From a virus (Duplodnaviria > Heunggongvirae > Uroviricota > Caudoviricetes): a DNA stretch of 64,000 nt. Numbering within the stretch: the first letter of the stretch is position 1; every line of letters begins with the position of its first letter. A program made the position numbers and the translations under genes. This document shows, piece after piece, positions 4,884 through 42,903 of the stretch. The stretch lies in IMG/VR virus record IMGVR_UViG_3300028534_000019, positions 31,091 to 95,090 of that record. The stretch is one strand, 5' to 3'. Below the pieces are notes generated by a model. It searched no databases, was not told the DNA's origin, and saw only the letters and a list, made by a program, of their open reading frames with translations.

Positions 4884-5633
4884 ATGTATATACCAAGAAG
4901 AGAATTTGATGATGAACCAAAAATAATTATTTTTAGTGGTGCTGGATTGGATGCCCCATCAGGATTAAAAACTTTTAGGGGTTCTGATGGTTTATGGGAT
5001 AGCCACAAAATACAAGATATTTGTACTGAAAGTACTTGGAAACAAAATTTTGAAGAAGTTCATAATTTTTATAATGGTTTAAGAAATAAATTAGAAAAAG
5101 CACAACCAAATAAAGCACATTTAAAAATAAAAGAATTATATGAAAAGTACCCTGATAGTGTTCTAAATATTACAATGAATATATCAGACTTTTTTGAAAG
5201 GTTAGAAGTTCCAGTTCTTCATATTCACGGAGAACTTAAAAAAATGGAATGTTATGCTTGTGGTACTAAATGGGATATTGGGTATAAGCAGTGGGATATT
5301 GAAAAAGATAGGTGTCCTAAATGCAATAGTAGAAAAGGTGTGAAACCATCTATTGTATTTTTTGGTGGTCAAGCACCTATGTATAGCTACTTGTGGCGTG
5401 CTTTTGAGCATACTATGAATAAAGATACTATTGTGATTGTTATTGGTACTCAGGGTAATGTAGTGAATGTAGAAGAGAATTTAATAGGTACTCCTTGTAA
5501 GAAAATTCTTTGTAATATGGAAGCATCAGCAGATATTAATGTAAAAAAATGTGGTTTTGATAAGGTGTACTATGAAAGTATAGAAACAGCAATAGACAAA
5601 ATTATGGATGATATTGAAGAATGGAAAAAATAA
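4884..5633 (+). CDS. Sir2-family NAD-dependent deacylase / ADP-ribosyltransferase
   Basis: Sirtuin motifs FSGAGLDAPSGLKTFRGSDGLW and ITMNISDF...VLHIHGEL. Zn tetrad CYACG...CPKCN, then IVFFGG. Confidence 0.8.
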   Translation: MYIPRREFDDEPKIIIFSGAGLDAPSGLKTFRGSDGLWDSHKIQDICTESTWKQNFEEVHNFYNGLRNKLEKAQPNKAHLKIKELYEKYPDSVLNITMNISDFFERLEVPVLHIHGELKKMECYACGTKWDIGYKQWDIEKDRCPKCNSRKGVKPSIVFFGGQAPMYSYLWRAFEHTMNKDTIVIVIGTQGNVVNVEENLIGTPCKKILCNMEASADINVKKCGFDKVYYESIETAIDKIMDDIEEWKK

Positions 5634-7157: not shown

Positions 7158-7166
7158 AGGTTAGAT

Positions 7167-7463
7167 ATGGATTTAGATAAAATAAGATTAATAGAAACAA
7201 ATAGTGCTTTAGGTTATATGGAAGTAGCATACCTAATACAAATAAATGAAAAAGAAATGCTTTGTGTGTATTCAAATGAAGAAGGATATGTAGGTGACCA
7301 TTCTTGGGTGGTTGGTGAAGTGTATGATATGTTTGAATATGAGAGTGATTATGATGAAGTAATTAATGATAAGAAAGAAATGGTATTAAAAGATTCTCCT
7401 CTATATGGTGATTTTTTATTTGACTTTTTCTTAAAACATCTAATTAAGAATAAACTATGTTAG
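7167..7463 (+). CDS. hypothetical protein
   Basis: 98-aa ORF. Confidence 0.45.
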   Translation: MDLDKIRLIETNSALGYMEVAYLIQINEKEMLCVYSNEEGYVGDHSWVVGEVYDMFEYESDYDEVINDKKEMVLKDSPLYGDFLFDFFLKHLIKNKLC

Positions 7464-8438: not shown

Positions 8439-8795
8439 ATGAGTTTAGAAAGTACAGTGGCTTCACAGTCAATACACCCAGGAACATATGAAGTACATTG
8501 GGAAAATACATTCGATACAAAAGAAATAGTTAGTACAATAGAAATAAAACAAACTATATATTCTAGTAATCAATTAAAAAAAGTTCTTAAAAAATTATTA
8601 AAAAATTTTGATAAATTAAATAGTGAAATAAAATTAATAGAACCATCATATAATAATACTGAAGAAAAAATTAATAGAACATTTGCTATAATTGATATGA
8701 ATAATGAATATGAGATTAATAAACTAATTTCAGAAGGGTATTCTTTAAAAGAGATACACCAAGGTAAATTTATATTATACAAAAGGATTATATAA
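8439..8795 (+). CDS. hypothetical protein
   Basis: 118-aa ORF. Confidence 0.45.
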   Translation: MSLESTVASQSIHPGTYEVHWENTFDTKEIVSTIEIKQTIYSSNQLKKVLKKLLKNFDKLNSEIKLIEPSYNNTEEKINRTFAIIDMNNEYEINKLISEGYSLKEIHQGKFILYKRII

Positions 8796-9316
8796 TGGTT
8801 TTAAATTTTTATGGCGGGCCGGGTATTGGTAAAAGTACAAAAGCATCAGAGTTATTTTTTAGATGTAAACAACAAAACTTACAGGTTGAATTAATACACG
8901 AGTTTGCTAAAGATATGGTTTATTCTCAATCTATGGAAATATTGAAAGACCAATATTATGTAGGTGCTAATCAACATCATAGGGTGTGGAGAGTTCATAA
9001 CTATTACTTACAACAAGGTTTTAAAGAGGATGAATTTCTTATAATAACTGATAGTCCTATTTTGTTGGGTGCGGCTTATACTGATGATGATAAATTAAGA
9101 GATTTTATTTTTGAAACTTCAGAAAGATATAATAATATTAATATTATGCTAACAAGAAAATTTAATTACCAAGAAGAGGGAAGAAACCAAGATTTAAAAG
9201 GTGCTATTGAGATTGATAAAAAAGTTTTAGATTTATTAAATAAAACTTCTTATATAGAAACAAATGATACAGATAAAATTTTATCTCTAATTAAGGAAAA
9301 AATGAGTACAATATAA
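8795..9316 (+). CDS. P-loop NTPase / nucleotide kinase-like
   Basis: Walker A FYGGPGIGKST. Kinase-sized at 173 aa. Confidence 0.6.
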   Translation: MVLNFYGGPGIGKSTKASELFFRCKQQNLQVELIHEFAKDMVYSQSMEILKDQYYVGANQHHRVWRVHNYYLQQGFKEDEFLIITDSPILLGAAYTDDDKLRDFIFETSERYNNINIMLTRKFNYQEEGRNQDLKGAIEIDKKVLDLLNKTSYIETNDTDKILSLIKEKMSTI

Positions 9317-11741: not shown

Positions 11742-12089
11742 ATGCTTTATACTTACAGAATTAAAAAAATACACAAAATATATGATGGTGATACAATTAC
11801 AGCAGAACTTGATTTAGGATTTAAGATTTCATTTATTGAAAAGATTAGATTGTCTTTTATTGATGCTCCTGAAATAAGAGGGGAAGAAAGAGAAGAAGGA
11901 TTAAAATCAAGATTATGGTTAGTAGAACATTTAAACTCAGCTATATCTAAAGGTGATGATGTTTTTGTTAGAACAAATAAAGATAGCCAAGGTAAATATG
12001 GAAGATATTTAGGGGATATTATAATTAATGGGGAGTCACTTAATCTAAAGATGGTTGAAGAGGGTTATGCTGAACTTTATAAAAAGTAA
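11742..12089 (+). CDS. staphylococcal-nuclease (SNase/thermonuclease)-like nuclease
   Basis: IYDGDT, RLSFIDAPEIRG and KYGRYLGDI...N..MVEEGYA match SNase Ca-binding and catalytic positions. Confidence 0.65.
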   Translation: MLYTYRIKKIHKIYDGDTITAELDLGFKISFIEKIRLSFIDAPEIRGEEREEGLKSRLWLVEHLNSAISKGDDVFVRTNKDSQGKYGRYLGDIIINGESLNLKMVEEGYAELYKK

Positions 12090-12099
12090 AGGTTTTATT

Positions 12100-13872
12100 A
12101 TGGAAGGAATATTTAATAAATTAAAAGAACATAATAAAGATGTTGTACTTAGTGATGAAGAGAAAAATAAAGTTTTAAGTGTTATAGATATAGAGAAAAA
12201 TAAAGAGGGTTTATATGTAGATGCCTTTGGTATGCCTATATCGCATAATGGGTTAAGAGATTTAAAAAAAGAGAAAACACAAATAAATCTTTCAGAAACA
12301 TTAATAAATGAAATTAAAACATCATATTTAGATTATTATTATTTTAGAGAAAATTATTGTAAAATTGTTACTAAAAAAGGTATTAAAAGACCTGAGCCAA
12401 GACCATACCAAAAAAGGTTAGAAGATGATTTAGTAACAGGTGAAGATGTTTTAGCATTTTGGCCGAGACAATCAGGAAAATCTGTAACTATTTCAACTTA
12501 TCTATTATGGAAAGCAATTACAACACCTAATATTAATATTGGTATAGCGGCAAATGTTCAAAAATTAGCTATGGAAGTATTAGACAAAATAAAAAATATA
12601 TTTTTGGAGTTACCTATTTGGATGAAGCCGGGTATAAAGGTTTGGAATAAAGGTTCTATTGAATTTGAAAATGGTACAAGAATTTTAACCTCAGCAACTA
12701 ATGGTGATGCTTTTAGGGGGTTTACTATTAATATATTATATGTTGATGAGGTTGCTTTTATTAGACATAGTGTGTGGGAAGAATTTGCTGATTCTGTTTT
12801 CCCTGCTCAAGAAGCACTTATGGAAAAACAAACTATTATGTCAAGTACGGCTGGTGGGCTTAATCATTGGTATCATTTAGTAGAGGGTGCTAGAAAGGGT
12901 AAAAATGGTTATAGAATAGCTGAAGCAAGTTGGAAAGAAGTTCCTAGATGGAAAAAAGATGGTACTCTTAAAACACCTGATGAATTTAAGGCTGAAATAA
13001 TAGCTAAAAATGGAGAGATGTTTTTCCAACAAAATTTTGGTAACTCTTTTTTAGGTAGTTCTAAAACTTTAATAGATTCACAAGCATTAAAAAATATTGA
13101 ACCTATGGATGATGATGAAATTTTGTTTGATAATGTTTTTAATGGACTAAGAATTTTTAAAGAGCCAAAACCTAATCATAATTATATAGTTACTTGTGAC
13201 CCCAAAAAAGAGGGTTTGGATAGTGCTGGATTACAAGTTGTTGATGTTACAAATTTACCTTTTGAACAAGTAGCATCAGCACAATTACACGAGAGTTATT
13301 TAACAATTCCTGGTAAATTAAATGATTTAGGGTTGTATTATAATAAGGCTATGATAGTATGTGAAAATAATGTAGCTGAGTCTATACCTAGTACTGTATA
13401 TTATAATTATGAATATGAGGGTGAAGTCTTTATAGAAAAAGATAGTAAGGGTCGCCCTAAAAAGGAAATGGGCATTAGGACAACTACCAAAACAAAAAGA
13501 TTAGGTTTAACTCTATTAAAGAAATTTGTAGAGAATGGAAACCTAATAATAAATGATACAAAAACATTAGATGAATTATTTAACTTCATTGAATATAAAG
13601 ATGGTATATATAAAGCAGAAGAGGGTTATCACGATGACCTTGTTATGTCATTAATGCTTGTTTTTGCTCCATTTTTAGATTTTAAAAACTTTGATGATTT
13701 TAGAGGTTTTGTTGATTATCTTGATAAAAAAGAAAAACAACAAGAAGAGAATGATAAAGAGATGGAAGAATTTATGGATTTAGGTTTTAGTTCTGATGAT
13801 GATTTGGAAGATGACGGGCCGTTTACTAAGGATATTTGGGGAAATAGAGATATGGTTGGTGGCTTCATATAA
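12100..13872 (+). CDS. 17: terminase large subunit (T4 gp17-like)
   Basis: Walker A AFWPRQSGKSVTIST and Walker-B-like ILYVDEVAF, with a C-terminal nuclease region. Start moved to the ATG at 12100, which has an aaagg RBS. Confidence 0.85.
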   Translation: MEGIFNKLKEHNKDVVLSDEEKNKVLSVIDIEKNKEGLYVDAFGMPISHNGLRDLKKEKTQINLSETLINEIKTSYLDYYYFRENYCKIVTKKGIKRPEPRPYQKRLEDDLVTGEDVLAFWPRQSGKSVTISTYLLWKAITTPNINIGIAANVQKLAMEVLDKIKNIFLELPIWMKPGIKVWNKGSIEFENGTRILTSATNGDAFRGFTINILYVDEVAFIRHSVWEEFADSVFPAQEALMEKQTIMSSTAGGLNHWYHLVEGARKGKNGYRIAEASWKEVPRWKKDGTLKTPDEFKAEIIAKNGEMFFQQNFGNSFLGSSKTLIDSQALKNIEPMDDDEILFDNVFNGLRIFKEPKPNHNYIVTCDPKKEGLDSAGLQVVDVTNLPFEQVASAQLHESYLTIPGKLNDLGLYYNKAMIVCENNVAESIPSTVYYNYEYEGEVFIEKDSKGRPKKEMGIRTTTKTKRLGLTLLKKFVENGNLIINDTKTLDELFNFIEYKDGIYKAEEGYHDDLVMSLMLVFAPFLDFKNFDDFRGFVDYLDKKEKQQEENDKEMEEFMDLGFSSDDDLEDDGPFTKDIWGNRDMVGGFI

Positions 13873-13925: not shown

Positions 13926-14552
13926 ATGAGAAAGAAATTTAATGAAGATAAGAACAAAACTTATGAGAGTAAAGAACACTCTTTACATAAAAAGAAGATT
14001 GTAAAAAATCAAGACTATACAAAATTTAGGTTTTTTATAGGAACTTTTGATAATCAAACACCTAAGTTTCATTTAATATTAAATGATTTATATGATTCTA
14101 ATGAAAAAGATGAATTAGAATTAAGAATTATGTCACCAGTTGGATTGGTTATTGAATGTCAGCAAGTTGTGAATATAATGAATAACAAATTTAATGGTAG
14201 AACAACAGCATATATTGAAAGCCACGCTAGTTCAGCAGGTGCTATTGTTTTTGCTAATGCTGATAAAAGAGTTATATATGAAAATTCAAGAATAATGTTT
14301 CACAACTATTCAGGTGGTTATGGTGGTAAATTTCAAGATATTAAAGATAGATTAGATTTTGATGAAAAACATATTATTTCTTTTTTGAGTGTTGCTAAAC
14401 AATTCTTAAATAAAAAAGAATGGAAACAAATGGTAAATGGAAAAAACTTTTGGTTTGATGCTTCTGATATGTTAAAAAGAAATATAGCAACTCATATCAT
14501 AGTAGATGGTAAAGAGATGACTAAGAAAGAATATAAAAAATATAAAAAATAA
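13926..14552 (+). CDS. ClpP-like (S14) serine protease
   Basis: RIMSPVGLV...TTAYIESHASSAGAIVFANADKRV...SRIMFHN...DIKDRLDFD aligns with the ClpP Ser/His/Asp region. Confidence 0.7.
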   Translation: MRKKFNEDKNKTYESKEHSLHKKKIVKNQDYTKFRFFIGTFDNQTPKFHLILNDLYDSNEKDELELRIMSPVGLVIECQQVVNIMNNKFNGRTTAYIESHASSAGAIVFANADKRVIYENSRIMFHNYSGGYGGKFQDIKDRLDFDEKHIISFLSVAKQFLNKKEWKQMVNGKNFWFDASDMLKRNIATHIIVDGKEMTKKEYKKYKK

Positions 14553-14606
14553 TAATCTCTATAATAGAAAATCATATAAATATTATTAAAATTAAAGAGG
14601 TATAAA

Positions 14607-15344
14607 ATGAACCTTAATTTATATGACTCATCACACGATAGAGAATATGAACTTTTTAGAGATACAACAGAAGAATTAATTAATATGTATGGTGTACCTG
14701 TAAAATATCTTATAACAGAAAAAATTAATCAAAATGAAATATTTGGTGAATGGAGTCATTTAAAGATAGACAATCAAAAGGTACACCAATTTTTTGGTTT
14801 ACCATCAGCTAGTGATAATTGGGAAGGTGATAACTCTTTATTTTCAAATTTTGGGCTTCAAAATGTAGAAAGTATTAATATATTCATTCCTAGAAAAGTT
14901 ATGGAAGTGATACACCCTGAAATTGTTAATAGAGATGGTAAAGCAACAATAGAAAATTTACCTATTGGGAATTTGGTAGTTTTTGAAAGTAATAAAATAA
15001 TGGAAGTTACTGGTTTTGAATTAAGTTCAGCAGATTTTGGTAATAATAATGTATTTACTTCTGATAGACTGAAAAATGTTTTTAAACTTAAATTAAAATC
15101 TTATATACCAAATAGAGATGATTATTCTTCAGCAGATGATATAACAGATAGTAACAATTTTGATTATGGTGATTTTGGTAACTTAGATTCAATATTCAGA
15201 GATGAAGAAGAAGAAGTAAAAAATGTTACACACAAAGCCGAAGATGTAGTATTAAAAAATGAAACTATTTATCCTGCTGAGGTTAGAGAAAAACCAATAA
15301 GAGAAAAAACAAAAGAAGATAATCCTTTTGGGTATCTTGGTTAA
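14607..15344 (+). CDS. hypothetical protein
   Basis: 245-aa ORF. TATAAATA at 14575-14582 and agagg RBS upstream. Confidence 0.5.
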   Translation: MNLNLYDSSHDREYELFRDTTEELINMYGVPVKYLITEKINQNEIFGEWSHLKIDNQKVHQFFGLPSASDNWEGDNSLFSNFGLQNVESINIFIPRKVMEVIHPEIVNRDGKATIENLPIGNLVVFESNKIMEVTGFELSSADFGNNNVFTSDRLKNVFKLKLKSYIPNRDDYSSADDITDSNNFDYGDFGNLDSIFRDEEEEVKNVTHKAEDVVLKNETIYPAEVREKPIREKTKEDNPFGYLG

Positions 15345-15358
15345 TATAAAGGAAAAAT

Positions 15359-15754
15359 ATGAAAAATAACCTAAATGGTGTTGATAATACTAAAACAGTA
15401 GGTTCTTTTAATGAATTAGATAAGTTATTAAAAGATAAGAAAATGAAACCTGTTTTTGAAAGAGATGGTTTAACATTTTTTAAAAAATCAAGGTTTTATA
15501 TGAACAAAGGTGTATTAAGAGAACATATTGCTACATATAAGGGATATGCTATTCTACTAGACCACAACAATCTTAAAGAAACTTTAGATGAAAATAAAAC
15601 AAAAATGATGCCTATACTAATTAGTGCTAATGATATTAAATTACTTAAAAAAATAAATGGTAATATAATAAGAAAATTAAACCCACAAACTCTTACAAAA
15701 CTTGAAAAAGCAGTAATGCTTGATGAAGTAATGAAAAACATAGATTCAATGTAA
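15359..15754 (+). CDS. hypothetical protein
   Basis: 131-aa ORF with aaagga RBS. Confidence 0.5.
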   Translation: MKNNLNGVDNTKTVGSFNELDKLLKDKKMKPVFERDGLTFFKKSRFYMNKGVLREHIATYKGYAILLDHNNLKETLDENKTKMMPILISANDIKLLKKINGNIIRKLNPQTLTKLEKAVMLDEVMKNIDSM

Positions 15755-15830
15755 TCTATGTTCCCACAATAAAATTTTTAAAAAATCAATAATAAACATA
15801 CTATTTTTATTTTACTTTAAGCATATAGTA

Positions 15831-16601: not shown

Positions 16602-17051
16602 ATGATATATTCAAATAATAAAAAAGTAAAACACGACTATGAAATAATTGAAACATTTGAGGCAGGTGTTGTTTTGAGCGGTCCGCAAGTAAAATCAATT
16701 AGAAAAGGTTCTTTAAGCCTTAAAGGTTCTTATGTTAGTCTTGATGATGGTGTTTTATCATTAAAACAATACTCACTTGCTAGACCTGATTATTTGGATG
16801 CTTTTAGTTCTTTTGATGATAAACCAATAAAATTTTTACTCAAAAAAAGAGAGATTAAAAAATTACAAAAAAAGATTCAAGAAAAAGGTTTAACATTATC
16901 TATAACAAAAGTTTATCAACCTGAAAATACTAGATTTATTAAGGCTGAGTTAGTTCTTGTGAGAGGTAAAAAACTATATGATAAAAGAGAAGATTTAAAA
17001 AAGAAAACACAAGAAATGGATATGAAAAAGGCTATAAAATATGATAGATAA
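16602..17051 (+). CDS. smpB: SmpB (SsrA-binding protein)
   Basis: KHDYEIIETFEAGVVLSGPQVKSIRKGSLSLKGSYVSLDDG...KKREIKKL...GLTLSITKVY aligns along the length of E. coli SmpB. Confidence 0.85.
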   Translation: MIYSNNKKVKHDYEIIETFEAGVVLSGPQVKSIRKGSLSLKGSYVSLDDGVLSLKQYSLARPDYLDAFSSFDDKPIKFLLKKREIKKLQKKIQEKGLTLSITKVYQPENTRFIKAELVLVRGKKLYDKREDLKKKTQEMDMKKAIKYDR

Positions 17052-17250
17052 TCTAAAAAGTGCTGATGAAATATATTTAGTAGTACAGTTTGGAGCAAAA
17101 GATTTTAACAATAGAACACAAGAATTGATTGATGAAAATTATATTCCATTTAGTGATGTTGCTGTTCAAAGTTTTCACGATGAATTTTGCTTTTCACAAC
17201 AGTTTATAAAAAATCCAAAATACATAGAAGAAACAAAAAGGAAAATATAA
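17041..17250 (+). CDS. hypothetical small protein
   Basis: 69 aa. Its stop overlaps the next gene's ATG (TAATG). Confidence 0.4.
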   Translation: MIDNLKSADEIYLVVQFGAKDFNNRTQELIDENYIPFSDVAVQSFHDEFCFSQQFIKNPKYIEETKRKI

Positions 17251-18041
17251 TGTTAATAGTACCTGTTGGTTTGCCTGGTTCAGGAAAAACTGTTTTATCA
17301 AGAAAATTTAATACAGTTATAAATGCTGATGAATTGTTTAAGGATAATTATACATTAGATGATTTAATAAATTATATAAAAGAATATAATTATACAGTAA
17401 CAGATGTTTATTTGGATGGTTTATTTATTACAAGGAATTTAGTTAAGAAATTGATTGAAACTTTTGATTATTATATTAGATTAGTATATTTTAAACCTAA
17501 TATAGAAAATTGTATCTACAATGATTTATCAAGAAATAGAGAAAAAGATAGTGTTAATATAATTTATGGTTCTGATTTAAGTTTTATGAAAGAAAGTTAT
17601 TTTAGAAATAAAATAAGAGAAACAATGGAAGTATATAAGGCTGATTATGTAGAATATATAAAAGAAGAAAATAACTTTCAAAATTATATAGAAACACAAG
17701 AGTATGTCTTAGAAGGAAGTACATATGGTACTTGTTGGGATGAAGACGGCCCGTCTGAAACAACACCTGATGACCCATACCATTTTACTGATTTTACAGA
17801 ACTTGAAAAGATATTTAAAAAAATGAATATTCCTTATACAGAAGAAAATTATAATAAAATTGAAAGTGTTATAGAAGAAGAAGATAGAAGTGAGGGTGAT
17901 TATTATGGTGGTTATGCTTATAAAGAGGTTTATAGAGTTGAAGTTACATTATTAATAAAAGCAATACTAAAAGAGTTTTTTGGTATTGATAAAACAGATA
18001 TGGCATATATTAAAAAAGAATACCCTGAACTAATATTTTAA
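17250..18041 (+). CDS. P-loop kinase (polynucleotide-kinase-like N-terminus) with C-terminal EYPELIF tag
   Basis: Walker A VGLPGSGKT, then VINADE. Ends ...YIKKEYPELIF-stop. Start set at the ATG at 17250, which has an aaagga RBS. Confidence 0.6.
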   Translation: MLIVPVGLPGSGKTVLSRKFNTVINADELFKDNYTLDDLINYIKEYNYTVTDVYLDGLFITRNLVKKLIETFDYYIRLVYFKPNIENCIYNDLSRNREKDSVNIIYGSDLSFMKESYFRNKIRETMEVYKADYVEYIKEENNFQNYIETQEYVLEGSTYGTCWDEDGPSETTPDDPYHFTDFTELEKIFKKMNIPYTEENYNKIESVIEEEDRSEGDYYGGYAYKEVYRVEVTLLIKAILKEFFGIDKTDMAYIKKEYPELIF

Positions 18042-18056: not shown

Positions 18057-18569
18057 ATGGTAGAAGAAAATAATTTTAGAGAAACAAAAACACATATTTA
18101 TTTTTGGGGTAGTATCTATTCTCAATGGTACACTTCAAAAAACCAATTCAAAGAAGATGGATTTATTTTTCAAAATGCTGAACAGTATATGATGATGAAA
18201 AAAGCAGAACTTTTTAAAGATTATGATGTATTAGAAAAAATGAAACAAACAAGTAATCCAAAGGTATTAAAAAAATTGGGTAGAGAAATTAAAGGTTTTG
18301 ATGAAGATATTTGGAATTTTAATAAAATGGATATTGTTGAAAGAGGGAATTTTTTAAAGTTCTCTCAAAATCCTAAGTTATTAGAAAAACTTATAGCACA
18401 CAAAAATAAACATATAGTAGAAGCATCACCTTATGATAAGATTTGGGGTATTGGGCTTCATTGGTCAGATGATAAGGTATTAAATGAAAGTACTTGGAAT
18501 GGTGAAAATCTTTTAGGTAAATGTATTATGTCAGCAAGAGATAAAATTTTAAATCCAAAATCTATATAA
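18057..18569 (+). CDS. NADAR (YbiA/DUF1768) domain protein
   Basis: FQNAEQYMMMKKAELF, KKLGREIKGFDEDIW, KFSQNPKL and VEASPYDKIWGIG match the NADAR signature. Confidence 0.75.
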   Translation: MVEENNFRETKTHIYFWGSIYSQWYTSKNQFKEDGFIFQNAEQYMMMKKAELFKDYDVLEKMKQTSNPKVLKKLGREIKGFDEDIWNFNKMDIVERGNFLKFSQNPKLLEKLIAHKNKHIVEASPYDKIWGIGLHWSDDKVLNESTWNGENLLGKCIMSARDKILNPKSI

Positions 18570-18639
18570 TAAGAAAAAATTAAATAAAAATATTATATAA
18601 TTAAGAATTAAAACATTTAAAACACAAAGGAGATAATTT

Positions 18640-20490
18640 ATGGCAGTTATTGGTATAGATTTAGGAACGACAAATAGTGCTGTTTCAGTTTATGAAGTAG
18701 GGGAATTTAAAATTATTCCTAATGCTGAGGGTAAAAATACAACACCTAGTATTGTAGCATTTACAGATAAAGGGGATGTATTAGTAGGGGAATCAGCAAA
18801 AAGACAAGCAGTCACAAACCCTGAAAAAACTATTGAAGCAATTAAAAGAATTATGGGTATGCAATTTAATGAACCTAGATGTAAAGAGGCTCAAGAAAAA
18901 GTACAATATAAAATTGTAGATAAAAATGGTTTGGCCGCTGTTGATGTTGATGGTAAGATTTATACACCACAAGAAATTTCAGCTAAAATCCTTACAAAAC
19001 TAAAAGATGATGCAGAAGCATTTATTGGTAAAGAAGTTACAGATGCTGTAATTACAGTTCCAGCATACTTTAATGATGCTCAGAGAAAGGCGACACAAGA
19101 GGCAGGCGTTATTGCAGGGCTTAATGTACTAAGAATTATTAATGAACCTACTTCGGCCGCTCTTGCTTATGGTTTGGACAAAAAAGGTGAGGAAAATATT
19201 CTTGTTTATGATTTTGGTGGTGGTACTTTTGATGTATCTGTATTAGAAATTGGAGATGGTACTTTTGAAGTTCTTTCAACTGATGGTAATGCTTTCTTAG
19301 GTGGTAAAGACTTTGACCAAATTTTAGTTAATTATATTGCTGAATATTTTAAAGAGAAACAGGGTGTTGATTTAAGAAATGATAAAATGGCACTTCAAAG
19401 ATTATATGATGCTTCAGAAAATGCTAAAAAAGAGTTATCAAGTGTTGTAGAAACTGAAATTAACTTACCATTTATTACTATGACAGAAGCCGGCCCGCAG
19501 CATCTTGTTTTAAAAATTTCAAGAGGTAAATTTGAGGGGTTAGTACAAAATCTTGTAGATGAAACTATTGAACATATTACAACAGCATTACAAGACGCTG
19601 GTTTAAGTGTAGATGATATTAGTGAATTGATTATGGTTGGTGGCTCAACAAGAATACCTTTAGTACAAGAGGCAGTTTCAAAGTATTTTAAAGGTAAAAC
19701 TCTTAATAAATCTGTTAATCCTGATGAAGTTGTAGCCGCTGGTGCTTCAATTCAAGGTGGTGTATTAACAGGAGATGTAAAAGATGTTCTTCTTCTTGAT
19801 GTTACACCATTATCACTTGGTATTGAAACTATGGGTGGTATTGCTACTAAAATCATCCCAAAAGGTACAACTATTCCTGTTAAAAAATCAGAAATCTTTA
19901 GTACAGCAGTTGATAATCAACCAGCAGTTAGTATTGTAGTAGTACAAGGTGAAGCAAAATTAGCAGAAGATAATAAATCTTTAGGACAATTTAATCTTGA
20001 GGGTATAACACCAGCTAAAAAAGGTGTACCACAAATTGAAGTTAATTTTGATGTTGATTCTAATGGTGTTTTGAGTGTATCAGCTATTGATAAAGGAACA
20101 GGTAAAGAACAGAAAATAACAATTACAGGTTCGACAGGTTTAAGTGAAGAAGAAATTAGAAAGATGATTGATGATGCTGAAAAACAAAATCAAGAAAAGG
20201 CTGAAAAAATTAAAGCAATTGAAGCAAAAAATGAATTGGATGCTACTCTTTCAAGAATTAAAAACTTTAATGATGAAGAAAAAAATGAAGTGCTATCAGC
20301 TAAAATTTCTGATGTTGAAGAATATGTAAAAGAAGATAGAACAGCAGAAGAAATTAGAAAAATTAGAGATGAACTTGAAGAAGTTTATTTAAAAGCATTT
20401 GAAGAGAAATCAAAAAGAAATGAAGGTGCTGAGGTAAAAGAAAGCACTGAAAATAATGATGATGTTATTGATGCTGAAATTGAAGAATAA
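18640..20490 (+). CDS. dnaK: Hsp70 chaperone DnaK (canonical-looking)
   Basis: [32 protein letters not shown] and the substrate-binding domain [14 protein letters not shown]. Ends DVIDAEIEE. Confidence 0.95.
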
Positions 20491-20501
20491 AAGAGGAAAA
20501 A

Positions 20502-21305
20502 TTGAAAAAATTATATAAAATTCTTGAAATTGAAGAAACTTCTACAACAGTAGAAATAAAAAAAGCATATAGAAAATTAGCTAAAAAATACCACCCTGAT
20601 GTTTGTAAAGAAGAGGGTGGTGAAGATAAGTTTAAAGAAATTAATAGAGCATATGAAGTTCTAAGCAATCCACAAGAAAAACAAAAGTATGATAGATTTG
20701 GTGATGAAATGTATGAAAAAATGGGGTCAGGTGGTGGAAGACCTAATCCAAATGCTGATGAGTTTGCAGAAGCAATGGCATCATTTTTCAACCAAAAGGG
20801 AAATCCCCGACAAGGTAATCCTTTTGGTATGGGTGGTAATCCTTTTATTCATACAACAATTCAAGCATATATTTCGATAGAAGATTTATTTAAAGGTACT
20901 TCTATACAATTACAAGATGGTACTAAAGTAAAAATACCACCTAGAACAATACCGGGTAGTAGGGTAAGAGTTAAAGGCAAAGGTATGTCAGATGGTAAAA
21001 ATACAGGAGATTTATTTATTATCATAACACCAAAAAATAATGATAAAGAATTTGTTGAGAATGATACTATTATAAAGATTATCAAAATTGATTTAGTTAG
21101 TATGATTTTTGGAAATGAAATAAAATATAATCATTATGGTAAAGATTTAATTGTTACTGTTCCAAAAAATACAAAGCCCGGTGACTTTGTACAAATTCCC
21201 AATCAGGGCTTAGGTACTCAGGGTTCATTAATTTTACATTTAGATTTAGAATTACCAAAAGCAGAAGATTTAGATGAAGAAAAAGTAAAAGAATTATTTA
21301 ATTAA
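20502..21305 (+). CDS. J-domain co-chaperone (class B-like, no Zn-finger), TTG start
   Basis: J domain with YRKLAKKYHPD...KFKEINRAYEVLSNPQEKQKYDRFG, followed by a G-rich linker and a C-terminal client-binding domain. aagagga RBS 5 nt before TTG. Confidence 0.85.
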   Translation: MKKLYKILEIEETSTTVEIKKAYRKLAKKYHPDVCKEEGGEDKFKEINRAYEVLSNPQEKQKYDRFGDEMYEKMGSGGGRPNPNADEFAEAMASFFNQKGNPRQGNPFGMGGNPFIHTTIQAYISIEDLFKGTSIQLQDGTKVKIPPRTIPGSRVRVKGKGMSDGKNTGDLFIIITPKNNDKEFVENDTIIKIIKIDLVSMIFGNEIKYNHYGKDLIVTVPKNTKPGDFVQIPNQGLGTQGSLILHLDLELPKAEDLDEEKVKELFN

Positions 21306-21364
21306 TATACAATTAAGGTTTCTTTTGCTATAATTTCATCATATATAAACTAAAAGGATTCAAA

Positions 21365-21769
21365 ATGGCAAAAGAAAAAAGTTATGGGGTTGCTCCTTAT
21401 TTAATTATAAATGGGCAATATTATATATTGTTAAATAAAACATCAGAACATAGTAGATACAATTTCTTCAAAGGTAAAATTGAAGAGGGTGAAACTATTG
21501 CTCAATGTGCCAAAAGAGAATTTTGGGAAGAAACAGGTGTAGAAGTTGATGAGAGAGATTTTGAAGAATATTTTTTCCAAAAGTCTTCTAAAAAAGATGT
21601 TGGTATTTTTTTAATTAATTGGTCTAAATATATTAATAAAAAATTTCAATTTCAAAAAAGAGAAATTTGGGCTTCTTATTGGGTAGAGGTTGATGATGTT
21701 CAAACATCCAAAAACCAAAAAGAAATTGTTGATTCTATTGAATCTTTTTTTAAAAATAAATCTGAGTAA
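21365..21769 (+). CDS. Nudix hydrolase
   Basis: Nudix box GKIEEGETIAQCAKREFWEETGV. Confidence 0.8.
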   Translation: MAKEKSYGVAPYLIINGQYYILLNKTSEHSRYNFFKGKIEEGETIAQCAKREFWEETGVEVDERDFEEYFFQKSSKKDVGIFLINWSKYINKKFQFQKREIWASYWVEVDDVQTSKNQKEIVDSIESFFKNKSE

Positions 21770-24447: not shown

Positions 24448-25548
24448 ATGTTAGTTCAAAATAAAAAAGTTCCAAAAGAAACATTAGAGTTATTGGACTC
24501 TAAAATAGAAGAATTTGAAAAAAATACAAATTCAACTGTTTTATATATTACAATTACAGGTTCTGTTCTTTATGGTACTGATAATGAAAATAGTGATTTA
24601 GATTTTAAAGGTATTTTTATGCCTAATCTAAAAGAAGTGCTTATTGGTAATACACCTAGTGCTTTTGTTTTTAATTCAAATACAAAAGATAAAAACTCTT
24701 CTGATGATATTGATTTAACATTACACCCTGTAAATGACTTCTTTAATCATCTTAGAAAATCTGAAACAGGTGCTGTTGATTTACTTTTTAGTATGTTTAG
24801 AGAAGATACTATTGTTTTTGATGATGGTATTTTCACGAACTTTATGAAGAAAAATTATCAAAAGTTTAGAAATTCTAATATGAAAAGTTTTATCGGTTAT
24901 GCTGTTGGTCAAACTAAAAAATTTGGGATTAAAGGTGCTAGATATGAAGAGTTAGATGTTTTTTATAAAGATTGTGTTAATTATTTTAATCTTGCTCCAA
25001 AAGAAAATAAATTAGGTGAATATTGGGATTTTCTTGAACTAAAAGCCCAAGGTAAAAAATATATTAAGTTTACAAAAGCAGAAGGTGCTAGAAGAAATGA
25101 TGGTAGTAGTAATATCATTGATTATATTTCTGTTCTTGGTAAACTATATCATAAAGATGTAACAGTAGGTTATTTTTTAGAAAGAGTTTCTAAATTTTAT
25201 AATCAATTTGGTAATAGAACTAAAACAGTAGCTAAAACTGAATCAAAAACAGATTGGAAAGCAATGAGCCACGCCCTTAGAGTAGCTATGGAAGTTAAAG
25301 AGTTACTTCAATTTGGTTTTATTAAATTTCCATTGACTTATGCTGATGAGATTAAAGAAGTTAAATTTGGTAACAGAGAAGAACAAGAAACATTAGATAA
25401 AATTAGAGATGTATTGGGTGAAGTTGATACAATATTAGAAAATATTGATAAAGATAACTTTCCTTGTGAAATGAGTGAAGAATTACTTAAAAAATTAAAA
25501 TGGGAAGTAATTCTTCTATATAAAGAGTTTTTAGATTTAGGTTTTTAA
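24448..25548 (+). CDS. nucleotidyltransferase-fold protein (Pol-beta superfamily)
   Basis: TGSVLYGTDNENSDLDFKGIF (GS...DhD) and a downstream acidic SSDDIDLTL. Confidence 0.6.
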   Translation: MLVQNKKVPKETLELLDSKIEEFEKNTNSTVLYITITGSVLYGTDNENSDLDFKGIFMPNLKEVLIGNTPSAFVFNSNTKDKNSSDDIDLTLHPVNDFFNHLRKSETGAVDLLFSMFREDTIVFDDGIFTNFMKKNYQKFRNSNMKSFIGYAVGQTKKFGIKGARYEELDVFYKDCVNYFNLAPKENKLGEYWDFLELKAQGKKYIKFTKAEGARRNDGSSNIIDYISVLGKLYHKDVTVGYFLERVSKFYNQFGNRTKTVAKTESKTDWKAMSHALRVAMEVKELLQFGFIKFPLTYADEIKEVKFGNREEQETLDKIRDVLGEVDTILENIDKDNFPCEMSEELLKKLKWEVILLYKEFLDLGF

Positions 25549-26664: not shown

Positions 26665-27576
26665 ATGGAAGAACAAATAGCGATTGATTTAGGCTATTCA
26701 ACATCAAAAGTTGCTTATGCTGATAAAATAGCAAAATTCCCAACTGCTGTTTCTTTTGCTACTGATGTAGGTACATCATATGGTGAAGGGAATATTTATG
26801 ACTTTGAGGGAGATAAGTATTATGTGGGTAGTGAAGCCGCTGATGCTGAGGCTTTTACAACTATGGATTTTAAATTTTTATATAAATTTGCTCCTCTTCT
26901 TATCTATCATATTTTAAGTAAATTTGATAAAGCAGAACTTGAAAAACCTATTGTTGTAAAAACAGGATTGGCAATTGTTGATTGGCATAAAAAAGATGAT
27001 TTTATTGAAAGAATTTCAAAAATTGAAGTGAATGGGCAAACTGTTGAAACAACACCCATTCTTATTCCTCAAGGTGCTGGATGTGCTGTTGATTGGGTTT
27101 CATCAGATAATGATGGAGAATGGCCGGACAATCTTACAGTAGTTGATATTGGTTATAATACTATTAACCTTATATCATTTTTAGAGGGTAAACCAATTAG
27201 AAAAAATATGAAAAGTTACCCAGGACACGGTGTTTCTAGTATAATTAAACCTTTTACTAGTTATCTTGAAAATACTTTTGGTACAACATTTTCAGAACAA
27301 GAAGCAATTAAATTTTTTGTTAAAGGTACTTTTAAATATAATGGTGAAGACCAACCTAAAGTATCAGAAAAAATTACAGAATTAAAATCACAATTTGTTA
27401 AAAAAATGTTTCAATCTGTTTTAGTTTCTGATAAAAAACTTCTTGCTATGTCAGATGTAGTGCTTATTGCTGGTGGTGGTGCTTATTTACTTCAAGATAT
27501 TCCATTCCCGCCAAATGTTGAGTTTGTTGATTCTCCTTATGAGTTCAGTAATACTCGTGGTTATTTAATTTCATAA
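26665..27576 (+). CDS. actin-like ATPase (ParM/Alp family)
   Basis: Phosphate-1 IAIDLGYSTSKVA, phosphate-2 VVDIGYNTINL and adenosine motif LIAGGGAYLL. Confidence 0.65.
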   Translation: MEEQIAIDLGYSTSKVAYADKIAKFPTAVSFATDVGTSYGEGNIYDFEGDKYYVGSEAADAEAFTTMDFKFLYKFAPLLIYHILSKFDKAELEKPIVVKTGLAIVDWHKKDDFIERISKIEVNGQTVETTPILIPQGAGCAVDWVSSDNDGEWPDNLTVVDIGYNTINLISFLEGKPIRKNMKSYPGHGVSSIIKPFTSYLENTFGTTFSEQEAIKFFVKGTFKYNGEDQPKVSEKITELKSQFVKKMFQSVLVSDKKLLAMSDVVLIAGGGAYLLQDIPFPPNVEFVDSPYEFSNTRGYLIS

Positions 27577-28442: not shown

Positions 28443-28889
28443 ATGATTTTAGATAAAATCACAAAAGAACAATTATTAGCAAGAAAGAATAGAGATACCT
28501 TTAAAACAGGTATCTTAACTACATTAATGTCAGAAGTATCTATTATAGGTAAGAATAAAGGTAATAGAAAAACAACTGATGAAGAAGCAATTGCTGTTAT
28601 AAAGAAATTTATTTCAAATGCTGAAAATAACATTGAATCTCTTCAAGGTTCTCATAATTGGGAAAATTGTACTGAAAGTATTCAAGAATTTCAAGATGAA
28701 ATAGAATTACTTCAAGGTTTTTTACCAAAACAAATGACCGAAGATGAGTTAAAAGTATCTATTGAAGTTATGGTTTCAAAAGGTGCTAACAATATTGGTG
28801 CTATTATGGGTACTCTTAAAAAAGAATATGGTGGATTATATGATGGCAAGATGGCTAGTAAACTAGCTAAAGAAGTTTTATCAAAATAA
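28443..28889 (+). CDS. GatB/YqeY-domain protein
   Basis: LLARKNRDTFKTGILTTLMSEV..., TDEEAIAVIKKFI, ELLQGFLPKQMTEDEL and GAIMGTLKKEYGGLYDGKMASKLAKEVL follow the YqeY pattern. Confidence 0.75.
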   Translation: MILDKITKEQLLARKNRDTFKTGILTTLMSEVSIIGKNKGNRKTTDEEAIAVIKKFISNAENNIESLQGSHNWENCTESIQEFQDEIELLQGFLPKQMTEDELKVSIEVMVSKGANNIGAIMGTLKKEYGGLYDGKMASKLAKEVLSK

Positions 28890-42405: not shown

Positions 42406-42903
42406 ATGAAAACTGAAAATCAAAGAATTAAAGAATGGAATGAAGAAAGAGGTTTAATAAAAACACCAAAAGATATTAATTTAGTTAATGAATTTTCTTT
42501 CATTGTTGAAGAAATATTAGAAGGTTTAACAAATCTTAAAAGTGAAGAAGCAAGAGAATATGCCAAAACACTAACAAAAACAATAGCAAGTGGGAATATC
42601 AAATACTTATGTGATTTAATAGAAGAACATAATTTAGATATTGAACAAGATGGTGGAGATGAAATTATACCTTTAAGCAATGATGAAGTAGTAGATGCTT
42701 TATGTGATATTAAGGTATTTGCTAGTGGTTCAATAAGAAAATTAGGCTATGATGCTGATATTGCTATGGATGAAACACTTAAAGAAATTGAATCAAGAGT
42801 TGGAAAACAAATTGATGGTAAATTTGTTAAAGATAAATCTGATGAAGCAAAAGCAAAATGGTACAAAGCAGATTATTCACTAGCAATTGTTGAAACATTG
42901 TAA
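42406..42903 (+). CDS. MazG-like nucleotide pyrophosphohydrolase (tentative)
   Basis: IKEWNEERGL...EFSFIVEEILEG and EVVDALCDIKVFASGSIRKLGYD resemble the MazG/HisE EExxE helices. Confidence 0.4.
   Translation: MKTENQRIKEWNEERGLIKTPKDINLVNEFSFIVEEILEGLTNLKSEEAREYAKTLTKTIASGNIKYLCDLIEEHNLDIEQDGGDEIIPLSNDEVVDALCDIKVFASGSIRKLGYDADIAMDETLKEIESRVGKQIDGKFVKDKSDEAKAKWYKADYSLAIVETL

Follow-up and report, generated by a model that had tools for sequence, protein, structure and literature searches.

The window, by which we mean the whole 64-kb stretch of DNA analysed, comes from a large T4-like myovirus with an AT-rich genome (roughly 100 kb, 26% GC) and carries genes for a NADAR-domain protein, a small Nudix hydrolase and a MazG-like NTP pyrophosphohydrolase. 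On balance, we favour reading these as three independent accessory enzymes (an AdfN-like NADAR, a NudE.1-like Nudix and a dUTP/dCTP-directed MazG-like protein) rather than as one machine. Pfam, PHROG and motif evidence confirmed that all three open reading frames are real, intact and confidently assigned, and each is present where a preliminary description of this DNA had placed it. What we observed are the domain identities, the conservation of catalytic residues, the homology to proteins that have been tested and the genes nearby; for every one of the three enzymes, substrate and in vivo role are inferred.

The NADAR gene (18057..18569, + strand; 170 aa) and the Nudix gene (21365..21769, + strand; 134 aa) bound an interval, 18057-21769, that had been presented as NADAR plus Nudix. 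Both genes are there, but 2655 of the 3713 nt (71.5%) are occupied by dnaK (18640-20490, + strand; HSP70, E 1.7e-230) and a class-B dnaJ (20502-21305, + strand; DnaJ, E 2.2e-24; DnaJ_C, E 1.1e-16), which the preliminary description did not mention. These chaperone genes fill the NADAR-Nudix gap and stand outside the nucleotide set. The MazG-like gene (42406..42903, + strand; 165 aa) is 20.6 kb downstream of the Nudix gene, and a sirtuin-type Sir2 gene (4884..5633, + strand; 249 aa) lies upstream, 12.4 kb from the NADAR gene and 15.7 kb from the Nudix gene. With the MazG-like gene about 21 kb and Sir2 about 12 kb away from their supposed partners, the arrangement is therefore one of co-occurrence and not an operon. 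The claim that the genes form one "set" does not hold at the physical level: they are dispersed, and NADAR, Nudix and MazG-like are three separate genes that make up no module. All three are kept in a 96.8-kb relative (loci L012 and L092).

Enzymes of these kinds are well known in big phages, and in this respect the finding is ordinary. The domain matches are far beyond chance, but the co-occurrence is expected because NADAR is frequent: tblastn with the window NADAR matched 719 of 50,697 phage records, and the published frequency of NADAR among medium and jumbo phages is 48% (PMC9503650). That large myoviruses carry NADAR and Nudix together has been documented (PMC9503650), and with Sir2 added the pattern is also an already published one.

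The NADAR protein is a predicted ADP-ribosyl-guanine N-glycosidase

The NADAR protein matched PF08719 (E 3.8e-45; 154.5 bits, cut-off 35.1) over profile positions 11-162 of 163 and exceeded the cut-off of TIGR02464 (141.5 bits versus 73.7), a YbiA-type model named "riboflavin biosynthesis intermediates N-glycosidase". The closest solved structures were PDB 8BAU (E 5.4e-19), the NADAR of Phytophthora nicotianae (Pn), and E. coli YbiA (PDB 2B3W, E 1.1e-5). Residues E42, K49, R76, W86, K90, E122, D127 and W130 of the window protein correspond to Pn E43, K50, R79, W89, R93, E125, D130 and W133 (PMC11543638). The ADP-ribose contacts of 8BAU are thus kept, with K90 in place of Pn R93 as a conservative change. 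E42 and K49 were invariant in 43 homologues, and also in an alignment with the Bas62 NADAR and T4 gp30.3. The catalytic Glu and the phosphate-binding Lys are E43 and K50 in Pn, E36 and K43 in T4, and E88 and K95 in E. coli C7. The third acidic position of the window protein is Glu (E122), as in the YbiA/PnNADAR type. The protein is predicted to be an AdfN-like ADP-ribosyl-guanine N-glycosidase.

Aligned over 166 aa, the window NADAR and bas62_0106 of phage Bas62 shared 38% identity (E 6e-32). Phages Bas60, Bas61 and Bas62 have this type of NADAR in common; tested as AdfN-Bas60, it neutralised DarT1 and allowed phages to grow on DarTG1 hosts (PMC11825919). One mark of an AdfN-type counter-defence protein is to be a phage-encoded orphan NADAR homologous to a tested AdfN, and the window NADAR has this mark; the other would be removal of guanine-ADPr from DNA with restored phage growth on a DarTG1 host. 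Every NADAR tested, YbiA and T4 gp30.3 included, hydrolysed guanine-ADPr in vitro, whether on DNA or on RNA (PMC11125620, PMC11833690), and the tested NADARs removed ADP-ribose from guanine but not from thymine (PMC11125620, PMC11825919). The earlier proposal that the NADAR removes ADP-ribose from DNA bases thus stands as a prediction for guanine, supported by the kept residues and the likeness to an AdfN-type protein. An assay on thymidine-ADPr would therefore be expected to be negative.

The protein does not fit DarG1, the DarT1-associated NADAR antitoxin: the third acidic position is Glu and not Asp, no DarT1 gene adjoins, and the neighbours are DnaK and a protein of 263 aa that has a P-loop near its N terminus (17250-18041, + strand; AAA_33 and AAA_18 matches below threshold), whose gene stops 16 nt ahead of NADAR.

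Most likely, the NADAR would be an active ribosyl N-glycosidase and would act as published for AdfN: in the early phase of infection it would cleave the N2-guanine-ADP-ribose bond on phage DNA, and possibly on RNA, after modification by DarT1-type (or ScARP/pierisin-like) ADP-ribosyltransferases, and replication would be restored. A second possible role would be the clearing of NAD-derived ribosyl compounds, linked to the phage sirtuin and to NAD-salvage genes. Because no DarT or other ADP-ribosyltransferase was found among the Pfam matches of the 64-kb window, the threat that the NADAR would counter is hypothetical. T4 gp30.3 and YbiA were active in vitro, yet alone they gave cells no protection against DarT1 (PMC11125620), indicating that in vitro activity is no guarantee of a counter-defence role.

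NAD-related genes near NADAR

The window Sir2 matched PF02146 (E 1.2e-27), PF22751 (E 1.2e-8) and phrog_2162 (E 7.5e-52), and scored 130 bits, below the cut-off, against NF001753. It is a complete sirtuin with the GAG motif, the catalytic HG and two CxxC zinc-ribbon pairs, and its gene is overlapped by a DUF488-N3a gene (5621-6088). Of 88 loci that carry NADAR, nearly all taken from viral collections, 18 had Sir2 within 6 kb of a NADAR of this clade, as did 7 of 80 bacterial loci, with Chryseobacterium among the carriers. Bacterial relatives of the window NADAR occur in NrtR-controlled NAD-salvage operons; NrtR was directly upstream of NADAR in 27 bacterial loci, and one operon (L136) reads NrtR-NADAR-PnuC-NadR-ARH-NAPRTase-nicotinamidase. 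Among phages, the closest relatives have genes for NAPRTase, Acb1-like and AAA_28-SIR2 proteins near NADAR. This context supports the link of NADAR with both Sir2 and NAD metabolism that the preliminary description had drawn. The phage NAD reconstitution pathways NARP1-3 are marked by the gene pairs Adps+Namat, Nampt+Nmnat and PnuC+NadR. The Pfam matches of the 64-kb window included none of these, the one candidate being an AAA_28 protein (8795-9316) with a match below threshold; no NARP pathway can be claimed for the window.

These neighbourhoods could also be read as sirtuin-coupled: Sir2, with DUF488-N3a, would deacylate or ADP-ribosylate targets in the host at the expense of NAD+, and the NADAR, the Nudix and the kinase-like AAA_28 protein would dispose of or recycle O-acyl-ADPr and ADPr. 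The completeness of the sirtuin, its recurrence near NADAR in phages and Chryseobacterium, and an AAA_28-SIR2-Acb1 cluster 3.5 kb downstream of NADAR in one relative (L005) are consistent with this. In the window itself, however, the distances from Sir2 to NADAR and Nudix given above argue against it, as does the chemistry, since N-glycosidic cleavage by a NADAR is not obviously applicable to O-acyl-ADPr. The AAA_28 match is also below the Pfam threshold, and the PHROG label of that protein is thymidylate kinase. We regard such coupling as very unlikely.

The Nudix hydrolase resembles RNA-decapping and Ap4A-hydrolysing enzymes

The small, stand-alone Nudix protein matched PF00293 (E 3.6e-14; 53.4 bits, cut-off 21.1), and the Nudix box GX5EX7REUXEEXGU was matched exactly at G37-V59 (GKIEEGETIAQCAKREFWEETGV), a box of the "FKGK" type. 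A Pro about 16 residues past the box is said, after Dunn et al. 1999, to mark the ADP-ribose pyrophosphatase subfamily. Position +16 of the window Nudix is S75, and no Pro occurs from +8 to +21. The top 50 Foldseek matches of its model contained no catalytic ADPR pyrophosphatase, the sole ADPR-binding entry, at rank 46, being the Nudix domain of NrtR. NudC enzymes are marked by the SQPWPFPxS motif and a zinc-binding N-terminal domain; the motif was not found in the 134-aa protein, which scored 30 bits against NF001299 (cut-off 158). ApnA hydrolases have a Tyr 16-18 residues past the box, and the window Nudix has no Tyr at +16 to +18.

The best PDB sequence match was Dcp2 (1.5e-5). Foldseek placed 1ktg, Dcp2, CT771, NUDT2 and RppH at the top, for a model with a pLDDT of only 70 that was built from 8 sequences, the size of this tiny orthologue family, and with E-values that differed less than 100-fold among Nudix subfamilies. 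NudC also counted among the sequence and fold neighbours. Identity to T4 NudE.1 was 36% over 55 aa. The protein resembles most nearly a group that comprises Ap4A hydrolases, Dcp2, RppH and T4 NudE.1, a likeness that does not assign it to a substrate class. Its orthologues adjoin Thg1 in three loci (L009, L011 and L012), and RlaP is also found beside them (Thg1 or RlaP in L009/L010). These neighbours point to RNA 5′ ends as a target at least as likely as free ADP-ribose. T4 NudE.1 hydrolyses ADPR, Ap3A and FAD and decaps NAD-RNA in vitro, and does not trim ppp-RNA (bioRxiv 10.1101/2024.04.04.588121). The window enzyme would cleave a nucleoside-diphosphate-X bond and, like T4 NudE.1, would most likely be a broad hydrolase of ADP-X, dinucleoside polyphosphates or NAD/Np4 caps, with small molecules and/or RNA 5′ ends as its targets.

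Chaperone and translation-linked genes around NADAR

The one unusual feature of the finding is the chaperone cassette that, in this phage lineage, repeatedly lies directly downstream of NADAR. Elsewhere, the slot between NADAR and Nudix holds Thg1-DUF7831 (L012), Hsp20-DnaK-GrpE-DnaJ (L018) or GroEL (L003, L005 and L013), and in the NADAR-GroEL arrangement start and stop overlap.

The order in the window is SmpB (16602-17051, + strand; PF01668, E 1.7e-38), the P-loop protein, NADAR, the cassette, Nudix, and then RlaP and an actin-like protein; a 69-aa ORF also lies in the stretch upstream of NADAR (16602..18041, + strand). This order recurs in part in L012 (SmpB, NADAR, Thg1, Nudix), L014 (NADAR then RlaP) and L246 (RlaP, NADAR, SmpB), so that SmpB is near NADAR in L012 and L246 also. 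In this lineage the block holds SmpB, tmRNA, the CCA enzyme, RlaP and Thg1, and 13 of 88 loci had YqeY or the CCA enzyme no more than 6 kb from NADAR.

These associations allow an RNA-centred reading, in which a conserved translation-upkeep block (SmpB, tmRNA, CCA-adding enzyme, RlaP, Thg1, YqeY and chaperones) includes NADAR and Nudix. The NADAR would strip ADP-ribose from tRNA or rRNA guanines or clear ADPr by-products of RNA repair, and the Nudix would trim or decap the 5′ ends of RNA, such as those formed by Thg1-type 3′-5′ addition, or remove NAD/Np4A caps. We consider this reading fairly unlikely. The partial recurrence of the gene order, which extends to L009/L010, is consistent with it, as are the RNA-decapping enzymes that are the nearest neighbours of the Nudix. 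However, the argument is one of proximity alone, and phage genomes are so dense in genes that accessory ones cluster in any case; moreover, no Thg1 was found in the window. Furthermore, we know of no anti-phage defence that ADP-ribosylates RNA specifically at guanine, which counts against this reading. In its favour, NADARs were able in vitro to reverse the ADP-ribosylation of guanosine in RNA (PMC11833690) and an association between NADAR and RNA repair was noted earlier (PMC9503650), whereas the failure of T4 NudE.1 to trim ppp-RNA speaks against the proposed trimming (bioRxiv 10.1101/2024.04.04.588121).

A related idea, which we hold to be quite unlikely, links NADAR functionally, in this AT-rich T4-like lineage, to the quality control of proteins and RNA, instead of or besides DNA de-ADP-ribosylation. 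If true, NADAR and Nudix would act in a "keep translation running" module of the phage's own, repairing ADP-ribosylated components of translation or folding (tRNA or rRNA guanines, or some other adduct in which ADPr is N-linked).

The MazG-like protein is probably a dUTP/dCTP-type house-cleaning enzyme

The MazG-like protein matched phrog_715, "MazG-like pyrophosphatase" (E 1.8e-11). It had no Pfam, NCBIfam or PDB sequence match, and the curated MazG, PRA-PH and dUTPase_2 models were not matched; among its 148 homologues, a few distant ones carry PF01503 or PF12643. In 50 homologues E35, E36, E39, D97, D101 and E123 were invariant and E127 nearly so. The AF2 model was helical (pLDDT 95.6), and its only consistent PDB fold neighbour was DR2231, a weak match (E 9e-3, TM about 0.5, 19% identity). 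Neighbouring genes encode an Hsp70, a DNA methyltransferase and a dCMP deaminase (43498-43989; the second ORF downstream), the last of these an adjacency that is not conserved in the relative L092.

The preliminary description had connected this protein to (p)ppGpp. None of the neighbouring genes provides a contextual link to (p)ppGpp or the stringent response, the closest structural neighbour is a MazG-like enzyme specific for dUTP, and the gene lies beside a dCMP deaminase gene. Thus the protein is probably a dUTP/dCTP-type house-cleaning enzyme, the "housekeeping" outcome that the preliminary description itself had named as refuting its view. The interpretation given in that description is, as a whole, partly supported, and its (p)ppGpp part is not supported. 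The enzyme would convert a (d)NTP, probably dUTP and/or dCTP, to (d)NMP and PPi. Its product would feed the dCMP deaminase and ThyX, which is also encoded within the window, to yield the dTTP needed by an AT-rich genome, and its activity would keep uracil out of DNA.

Housekeeping could be extended to all three enzymes, with the NADAR in YbiA-type damage control (riboflavin intermediates or NAD breakdown), the Nudix a MutT-like sanitiser and the MazG-like protein a dUTPase/dCTPase, none of them anti-defence. A purely metabolic NADAR is possible, because the protein scores above the TIGR02464 cut-off and the bacterial context is NAD salvage and not toxin-antitoxin. Source records also label NADAR homologues "ribA/ribD-fused uncharacterized protein", but the Pfam matches of the window included no riboflavin-pathway domain, with no ribA/ribD fusion or linkage. 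MutT was the best NCBIfam match of the Nudix, although at 36 bits it was far below the cut-off of 98. The nearness of the MazG-like protein to a dUTPase, with a dCMP deaminase close by, fits as well. Set against a 38%-identical phage NADAR of demonstrated counter-defence function (PMC11825919), this extension to all three seems unlikely to us.

Comparison with known systems

The nearest counterparts of the window NADAR are the AdfN proteins of Escherichia phages Bas60, Bas61 and Bas62, which are likewise phage-encoded, stand-alone orphans of about 170-180 aa and have in common with it a "VEASPYD.I.GI" motif in which the third acidic position is Glu. The window protein, a predicted enzyme, differs from the AdfN proteins of the Bas phages and T4 in its phage lineage and its chaperone neighbours, and the T4 30.x region is not its setting. 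T4 gp30.3 (AdfN-T4) is only 29% identical to it and has His where the window protein has Glu (PMC11543638). The Pn NADAR (8BAU) and YbiA are its best solved relatives and belong to the same Glu class; unlike them, it is phage-borne and is linked neither to riboflavin genes nor to a LexA operon.

T4 NudE.1 (gene e.1) is, like the window Nudix, a small, stand-alone protein from a T4-like phage; the two share the "x-[WY]-x-[IF]-[PF]-K-G" entry into the box and a fold class near RppH and Ap4A hydrolases (bioRxiv 10.1101/2024.04.04.588121). The likeness is restricted to the 55 aa around the box, and the neighbourhoods differ, with DnaJ next to the window Nudix and Thg1 in its relatives. The MazG-like protein has the all-alpha four-helix core and the EExxE and DxxxD ligands of phrog_715 and of Deinococcus radiodurans DR2231, a MazG-like dUTPase, and differs from DR2231 in that it carries a further conserved segment at its C-terminal end, a beta-hairpin (residues about 130-160). 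As a complement, NADAR, Nudix and Sir2 occur together in the window phage as in the NAD+/ADPr gene complement described for large myoviruses by Iyer et al. 2022 (PMC9503650), and relatives of the window phage carry NAPRTase and NadM-Nudix genes near NADAR that compare with the same complement.

Organization of the NADAR, Nudix and MazG-like genes

The NADAR, Nudix and MazG-like genes named in the preliminary description were all present and intact, as judged by domain or PHROG matches: NADAR at 18057-18569 (+; PF08719, E 3.8e-45), Nudix at 21365-21769 (+; PF00293, E 3.6e-14; residues 37-59 form a textbook Nudix box) and MazG-like at 42406-42903 (+; phrog_715 'MazG-like pyrophosphatase'). Their grouping with Sir2 (4884-5633, +) into one set was not borne out: the genes are unlinked and dispersed. 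The MazG-like gene lies 20.6 kb beyond Nudix, Sir2 lies 12.4 kb upstream of NADAR, and NADAR and Nudix flank, one on each side, a gene pair encoding DnaK (18640-20490, +; 616 aa) and a zinc-finger-less class-B DnaJ (20502-21305, +). This pair, which the earlier description did not mention, makes up 2655 of the 3713 bases in the flagged interval. Between 15.5 and 24.5 kb, a scan for promoters and terminators returned 55 sites versus 59.5 expected from shuffled sequence; because such sites were no commoner than in shuffled sequence, operon boundaries could not be called. The 263-aa P-loop protein encoded upstream of NADAR had no convincing assignment in Pfam, PHROG or NCBIfam.

NADAR, Nudix and MazG-like are all kept in a 96.8-kb IMG/VR relative, indicating that they are conserved backbone genes of the lineage. 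One locus of this relative (L012) contains SmpB, a ClpP-like gene, NADAR, Thg1, DUF7831 and Nudix, and another (L092) contains the CCA enzyme followed by MazG-like. The part that varies among relatives is the content directly after NADAR.

The NADAR protein resembles phage anti-DarT factors

When the NADAR protein was aligned to the solved Phytophthora NADAR (PnNADAR, 8BAU; E 5.4e-19), every residue position reported to bind ADP-ribose or to act in catalysis in PnNADAR (PMC11543638) was retained. The matched residues (window = 8BAU) were E42 = E43, K49 = K50, R76 = R79, W86 = W89, K90 = R93, E122 = E125, D127 = D130 and W130 = W133. NADAR classes are distinguished by the third acidic position, which is Glu in the YbiA/Pn class, His in T4-like phage proteins and Asp in DarT1-associated antitoxins (PMC11543638). 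Glu at position 122 places the window NADAR in the YbiA/Pn class and excludes the His and Asp classes. Its score above the TIGR02464 cut-off is consistent with this placement.

The protein shows 38% identity to the Bas62 protein bas62_0106 (E 6e-32) and 29% to T4 gp30.3 (AdfN-T4), with which it has a Glu/Lys pair in common. Phage NADARs are experimentally established anti-DarTG1 factors (PMC11825919). Bas60, Bas61 and Bas62 all encode the NADAR tested as AdfN-Bas60 (anti-DarT factor NADAR), an antagonist of DarT1 that allows phages to grow again on hosts carrying DarTG1, though not on those carrying DarTG2 (PMC11825919). Every NADAR examined to date cleaves guanine-ADPr, both in DNA (PMC11125620) and in RNA (PMC11833690), whereas none acts on thymine-ADPr (PMC11125620, PMC11825919). 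The window NADAR therefore fits best as a new and divergent addition to the AdfN-like NADARs already known from phages. If it works as predicted, the AdfN counter-defence family would reach an uncultured, very AT-rich T4-like lineage, and the host of this phage would use guanine-directed, DarT1-like DNA ADP-ribosylation. Such an extension, if true, would help in inferring the host and its defences and would not be conceptually new.

NAD-related genes in the neighbourhood of clade members

For the NADAR clade we collected 88 NADAR-carrying loci, almost all of them from viral collections, together with 80 loci from bacteria and 80 from metagenomes. The IMG/VR loci were found with an alignment as query; the single NADAR protein matched nothing there. 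Sir2 was located within 6 kb of NADAR in 18 of the 88 NADAR-carrying loci and near NADAR in 7 of the 80 bacterial loci, all seven from Chryseobacterium. A Nudix-box gene was found in the NADAR flank at 12/80 IMG/VR, 28/80 bacterial and 8/80 metagenome loci, and at the bacterial loci, including those of Chryseobacterium (L115-L183), this gene encodes the NAD regulator NrtR and lies immediately upstream of NADAR. The gene order in a Victivallales MAG (L136, 4210-10274) was NrtR, NADAR, PnuC, NadR (NMNAT + AAA_28), ADP-ribosylglycohydrolase, NAPRTase and an isochorismatase-type nicotinamidase, an order that looks like a complete operon for NAD salvage with NADAR among its genes. On the phage side, a NadM-Nudix gene was present 1.5 kb upstream of NADAR in one locus, and NAPRTase, Acb1-like and AAA_28-SIR2 genes were found near NADAR in the closest relatives. 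The association with NAD and ADP-ribose that gave the domain its name, and that has been surveyed in viruses (PMC9503650), is therefore valid in the clade of the window NADAR. A small-molecule role for the protein is also conceivable.

The 496-kb relative that carries the closest NADAR deposited at NCBI (L005; GCA_029935755.1, JAPOGX010000001.1, 496,182 bp) has AAA_28, SIR2 and Acb1-like genes contiguous in that order (14012-15820). The same contig contains an EF-Tu gene, a NUMOD3 endonuclease, an actin-like protein and GroEL in addition to the AAA_28-SIR2-Acb1 genes, and is possibly a megaphage related to the lineage of the window. In the window itself, the sirtuin-type Sir2 gene overlaps by 13 nt an 'Active DUF488-N3 subclade' (PF22751) gene, the pair spanning 4884-6088 (+). 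A literature search on DUF488 yielded nothing useful; the domain probably falls within the rhodanese-phosphatase superfamily and is predicted to act on sugars derived from NAD. The P-loop protein encoded at 8795-9316 (+) scored just below the threshold for AAA_28, the NadR kinase-type family, and its PHROG label is thymidylate kinase.

Chaperone genes downstream of NADAR

Three different chaperone systems were found immediately downstream of orthologous NADARs among related phages. NADAR is directly followed by DnaK-DnaJ in the window (18057-21305), by Hsp20, a DnaK split by a GIY-YIG ORF, GrpE and DnaJ in L018 (3421-9198), and by GroEL in L003/L004, L005/L006 and L007/L013/L194. GroEL abuts or overlaps NADAR in the latter loci, on contigs of 221 kb, 224 kb and 496 kb (L003, L005, L007 and L013; ~10.0-12.1 kb or 6.0-8.1 kb). 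Small ORFs and Thg1 occupy the same place in L012, and RlaP does so in L014. The split dnaK of L018 (4554-7705) consists of two ORFs, 4554-5243 and 6611-7705, with a GIY-YIG (SegE-like) endonuclease ORF at 5628-6446 between them; the interruption may reflect either a mobile intron or the insertion of a freestanding homing endonuclease.

Adjacency of NADAR and chaperones as a general rule was ruled out by the wider collection. In five huge phages and two Lak megaphages, the 12 kb around dnaK contained no NADAR, no chaperone was present within 5 kb of NADAR in the 80 bacterial loci, and the adjacency was absent from the more distant viral NADAR loci among the 88. Beyond the GroEL phage already described here, the 80 metagenome loci added only a J-domain match 5 kb upstream of NADAR in L244. 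Because the adjacency is absent from the huge and Lak phages and from the bacterial and distant viral loci, we read the region 3′ to NADAR as a hot spot for accessory genes that is specific to the lineage. That NADAR is functionally tied to the quality-control genes is an interesting alternative of low probability. The recurrence in related phages of different chaperone cassettes just after NADAR, together with that of Thg1 just before Nudix, is the one lead that merits specialist attention.

In T4 (L111, NC_000866 128307-131516), 30.3 (AdfN) is 2.4 kb from gene 31, which encodes the GroES-like co-chaperonin, in the same leftward block, and a dCMP deaminase gene lies just past this stretch. 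The closeness of 30.3 and gene 31 echoes the NADAR-chaperone proximity, perhaps by coincidence. In Bas62 (L110, MZ501084 75667-78593), the AdfN-type NADAR is two genes downstream of an annotated 'FtsH-like protease', another protein quality-control neighbour.

The window contains two Hsp70 systems, at 18640-21305 (+) and 39844-42164 (+), and no GrpE was found in its 64 kb. The second Hsp70 (620 aa) is more divergent, follows immediately after a tmRNA gene and is overlapped by a conserved 152-aa ORF that has a homologue in L009. Together with the tmRNA, it fills the slot between the CCA enzyme and MazG-like, where L092 has other genes. Among 50,697 phage records, only 40 had DnaK, and most of the genuine ones were huge or Lak phages.

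RNA-related genes and the Nudix protein

The tmRNA gene (39452-39772, +) was detected by ARAGORN (tag peptide ANNTDYTGNTVLSA) and by Rfam RF00023 (90.8 bits), and SmpB is encoded at 16602-17051 (+; PF01668, E 1.7e-38). The phage thus has its own trans-translation pair, with the two genes 22 kb apart; the portions retrieved from four related contigs contained no tmRNA. Genes for an RlaP nucleotidyltransferase (24448-25548, +), a YqeY/GatB-like protein (28443-28889, +) and a CCA-adding enzyme with a PolyA_pol head domain (38175-39122, +) are of RNA-repair or tRNA-maintenance style and are kept in relatives (L009, L010 and L092).

The Nudix orthologue family is tiny, with 8 sequences in 5.8 billion. 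Nudix subfamilies have defined motifs: a proline marks ADP-ribose pyrophosphatases, canonical ApnA hydrolases have a Tyr, and NudC has a motif of its own; a motif check found none of the three in the window Nudix. Its top PDB sequence match was the Dcp2 decapping enzyme, and the nearest folds to its model, which is of moderate confidence (pLDDT 70), were Ap4A hydrolases, Dcp2, RppH and NudC. The orthologue follows a Thg1-like gene immediately in L009 (9213-10456) and L011 (9201-10465), lies 1.4 kb after a gene for a Thg1-like 3′-5′ nucleotidyltransferase in L012 (8801-11594), and stands just before RlaP in L010. Thg1 itself was absent from the 64-kb window. The missing motifs, the Dcp2/Ap4A-type neighbours and the Thg1/RlaP context together single out no one substrate. 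Free ADP-ribose is no likelier a candidate than RNA 5′ ends or dinucleoside polyphosphates, and the protein cannot be called an ADP-ribose enzyme. T4 NudE.1, which is 36% identical to the window Nudix over 55 aa and has the same 'KG' entry to the Nudix box, is active on ADPR, Ap3A, FAD and NAD-capped RNA (bioRxiv 10.1101/2024.04.04.588121).

The MazG-like protein and nucleotide metabolism

No curated Pfam or NCBIfam model and no PDB sequence matched the MazG-like protein, and PDB searches with both the single sequence and a profile gave chance-level matches only. It has 148 homologues; across 50 of them EExxE, DxxxD and E123 were invariant and E127 was nearly so. The model is a helical bundle (pLDDT 95.6) whose only consistent PDB neighbour is DR2231, the MazG-like dUTPase of Deinococcus radiodurans, whose PDB entries name it a MazG-like NTP pyrophosphohydrolase in crystals with dUMP and dUMPNPP. 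The modelled fold and the metal ligands support membership of the MazG-like superfamily, whose members (phrog_715) are common among phages.

The gene is followed by a 169-aa ORF, a dCMP deaminase gene (43498-43989) and a DNA methyltransferase gene, and ThyX is also encoded within the window. The simplest reading is that the protein is a predicted dUTP/dCTP pyrophosphatase feeding dTMP synthesis in a 26% GC phage, for which T4 gp56 provides a parallel. Adjacency to dCMP deaminase is not a conserved feature of the gene, since relatives differ: in the 96.8-kb relative (L092), the genes after MazG-like instead encode an AAA ATPase and another Nudix. We found no connection to the alarmone (p)ppGpp, with which the enzyme had been linked; the DR2231 fold and the dCMP deaminase and ThyX context are most simply read as dNTP housekeeping.

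The phage and its relation to known systems

The window is part of a T4-like myovirus, from a source contig of 100,859 bp, and is densely coding, nearly all on one strand, with 26% GC and the standard genetic code. It encodes gp32 (1345-2358), a T4-type large terminase (12055-13872), RNase H, gp15, gp19, baseplate proteins, gp5 and gp25. The best cultured matches of the terminase were 39-41% identical (Vibrio phage phiKT1024 and Campylobacter CP220-type phages), and the NADAR neighbourhood of phiKT1024 was not syntenic with that of the window. Megablast of window positions 16-24 kb against 50,697 phage records gave no nucleotide-level match, indicating that there is no close cultured relative.

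Several further genes were observed. The ranges 26665-27576, 31568-32455 and 33465-36473 (+) hold an actin-like ALP/ParM-type protein, an SPFH/Band-7 protein preceded by a small hydrophobic ORF, and a MoxR-like AAA_5 ATPase with a DUF2201 metallopeptidase/VWA protein 0.6 kb downstream. A tape-measure-like protein of 1419 aa (49693-53952, +) has a VanY D-Ala-D-Ala carboxypeptidase domain and the internal repeats NTSNVA (~6 times) and LAKQGATKVSD (3 times). The 244-aa ORF at 7457-8191 (+) includes the sequence CKFNCEFC, which fits the CxxxCxxC pattern typical of radical-SAM enzymes, and had no Pfam match at E <= 1e-3.

The preliminary description was thus sound as observation and reasonable in spirit, but the genes are dispersed and not an organised set, the link between MazG and alarmones was not supported, and an ADP-ribose role for Nudix is no more than a candidate. 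The value of the re-examination is mainly corrective, in that the three genes are unlinked and the flagged interval consists mostly of a phage DnaK-DnaJ pair, and its interest rests mostly on the NADAR-chaperone and Nudix-Thg1 neighbourhoods. Large myoviruses with NADAR, Nudix, Sir2 and related genes are already documented (PMC9503650), and T4 carries a comparable Nudix; the NADAR, Nudix and MazG-like genes described here are further, dispersed members of these already known kinds.
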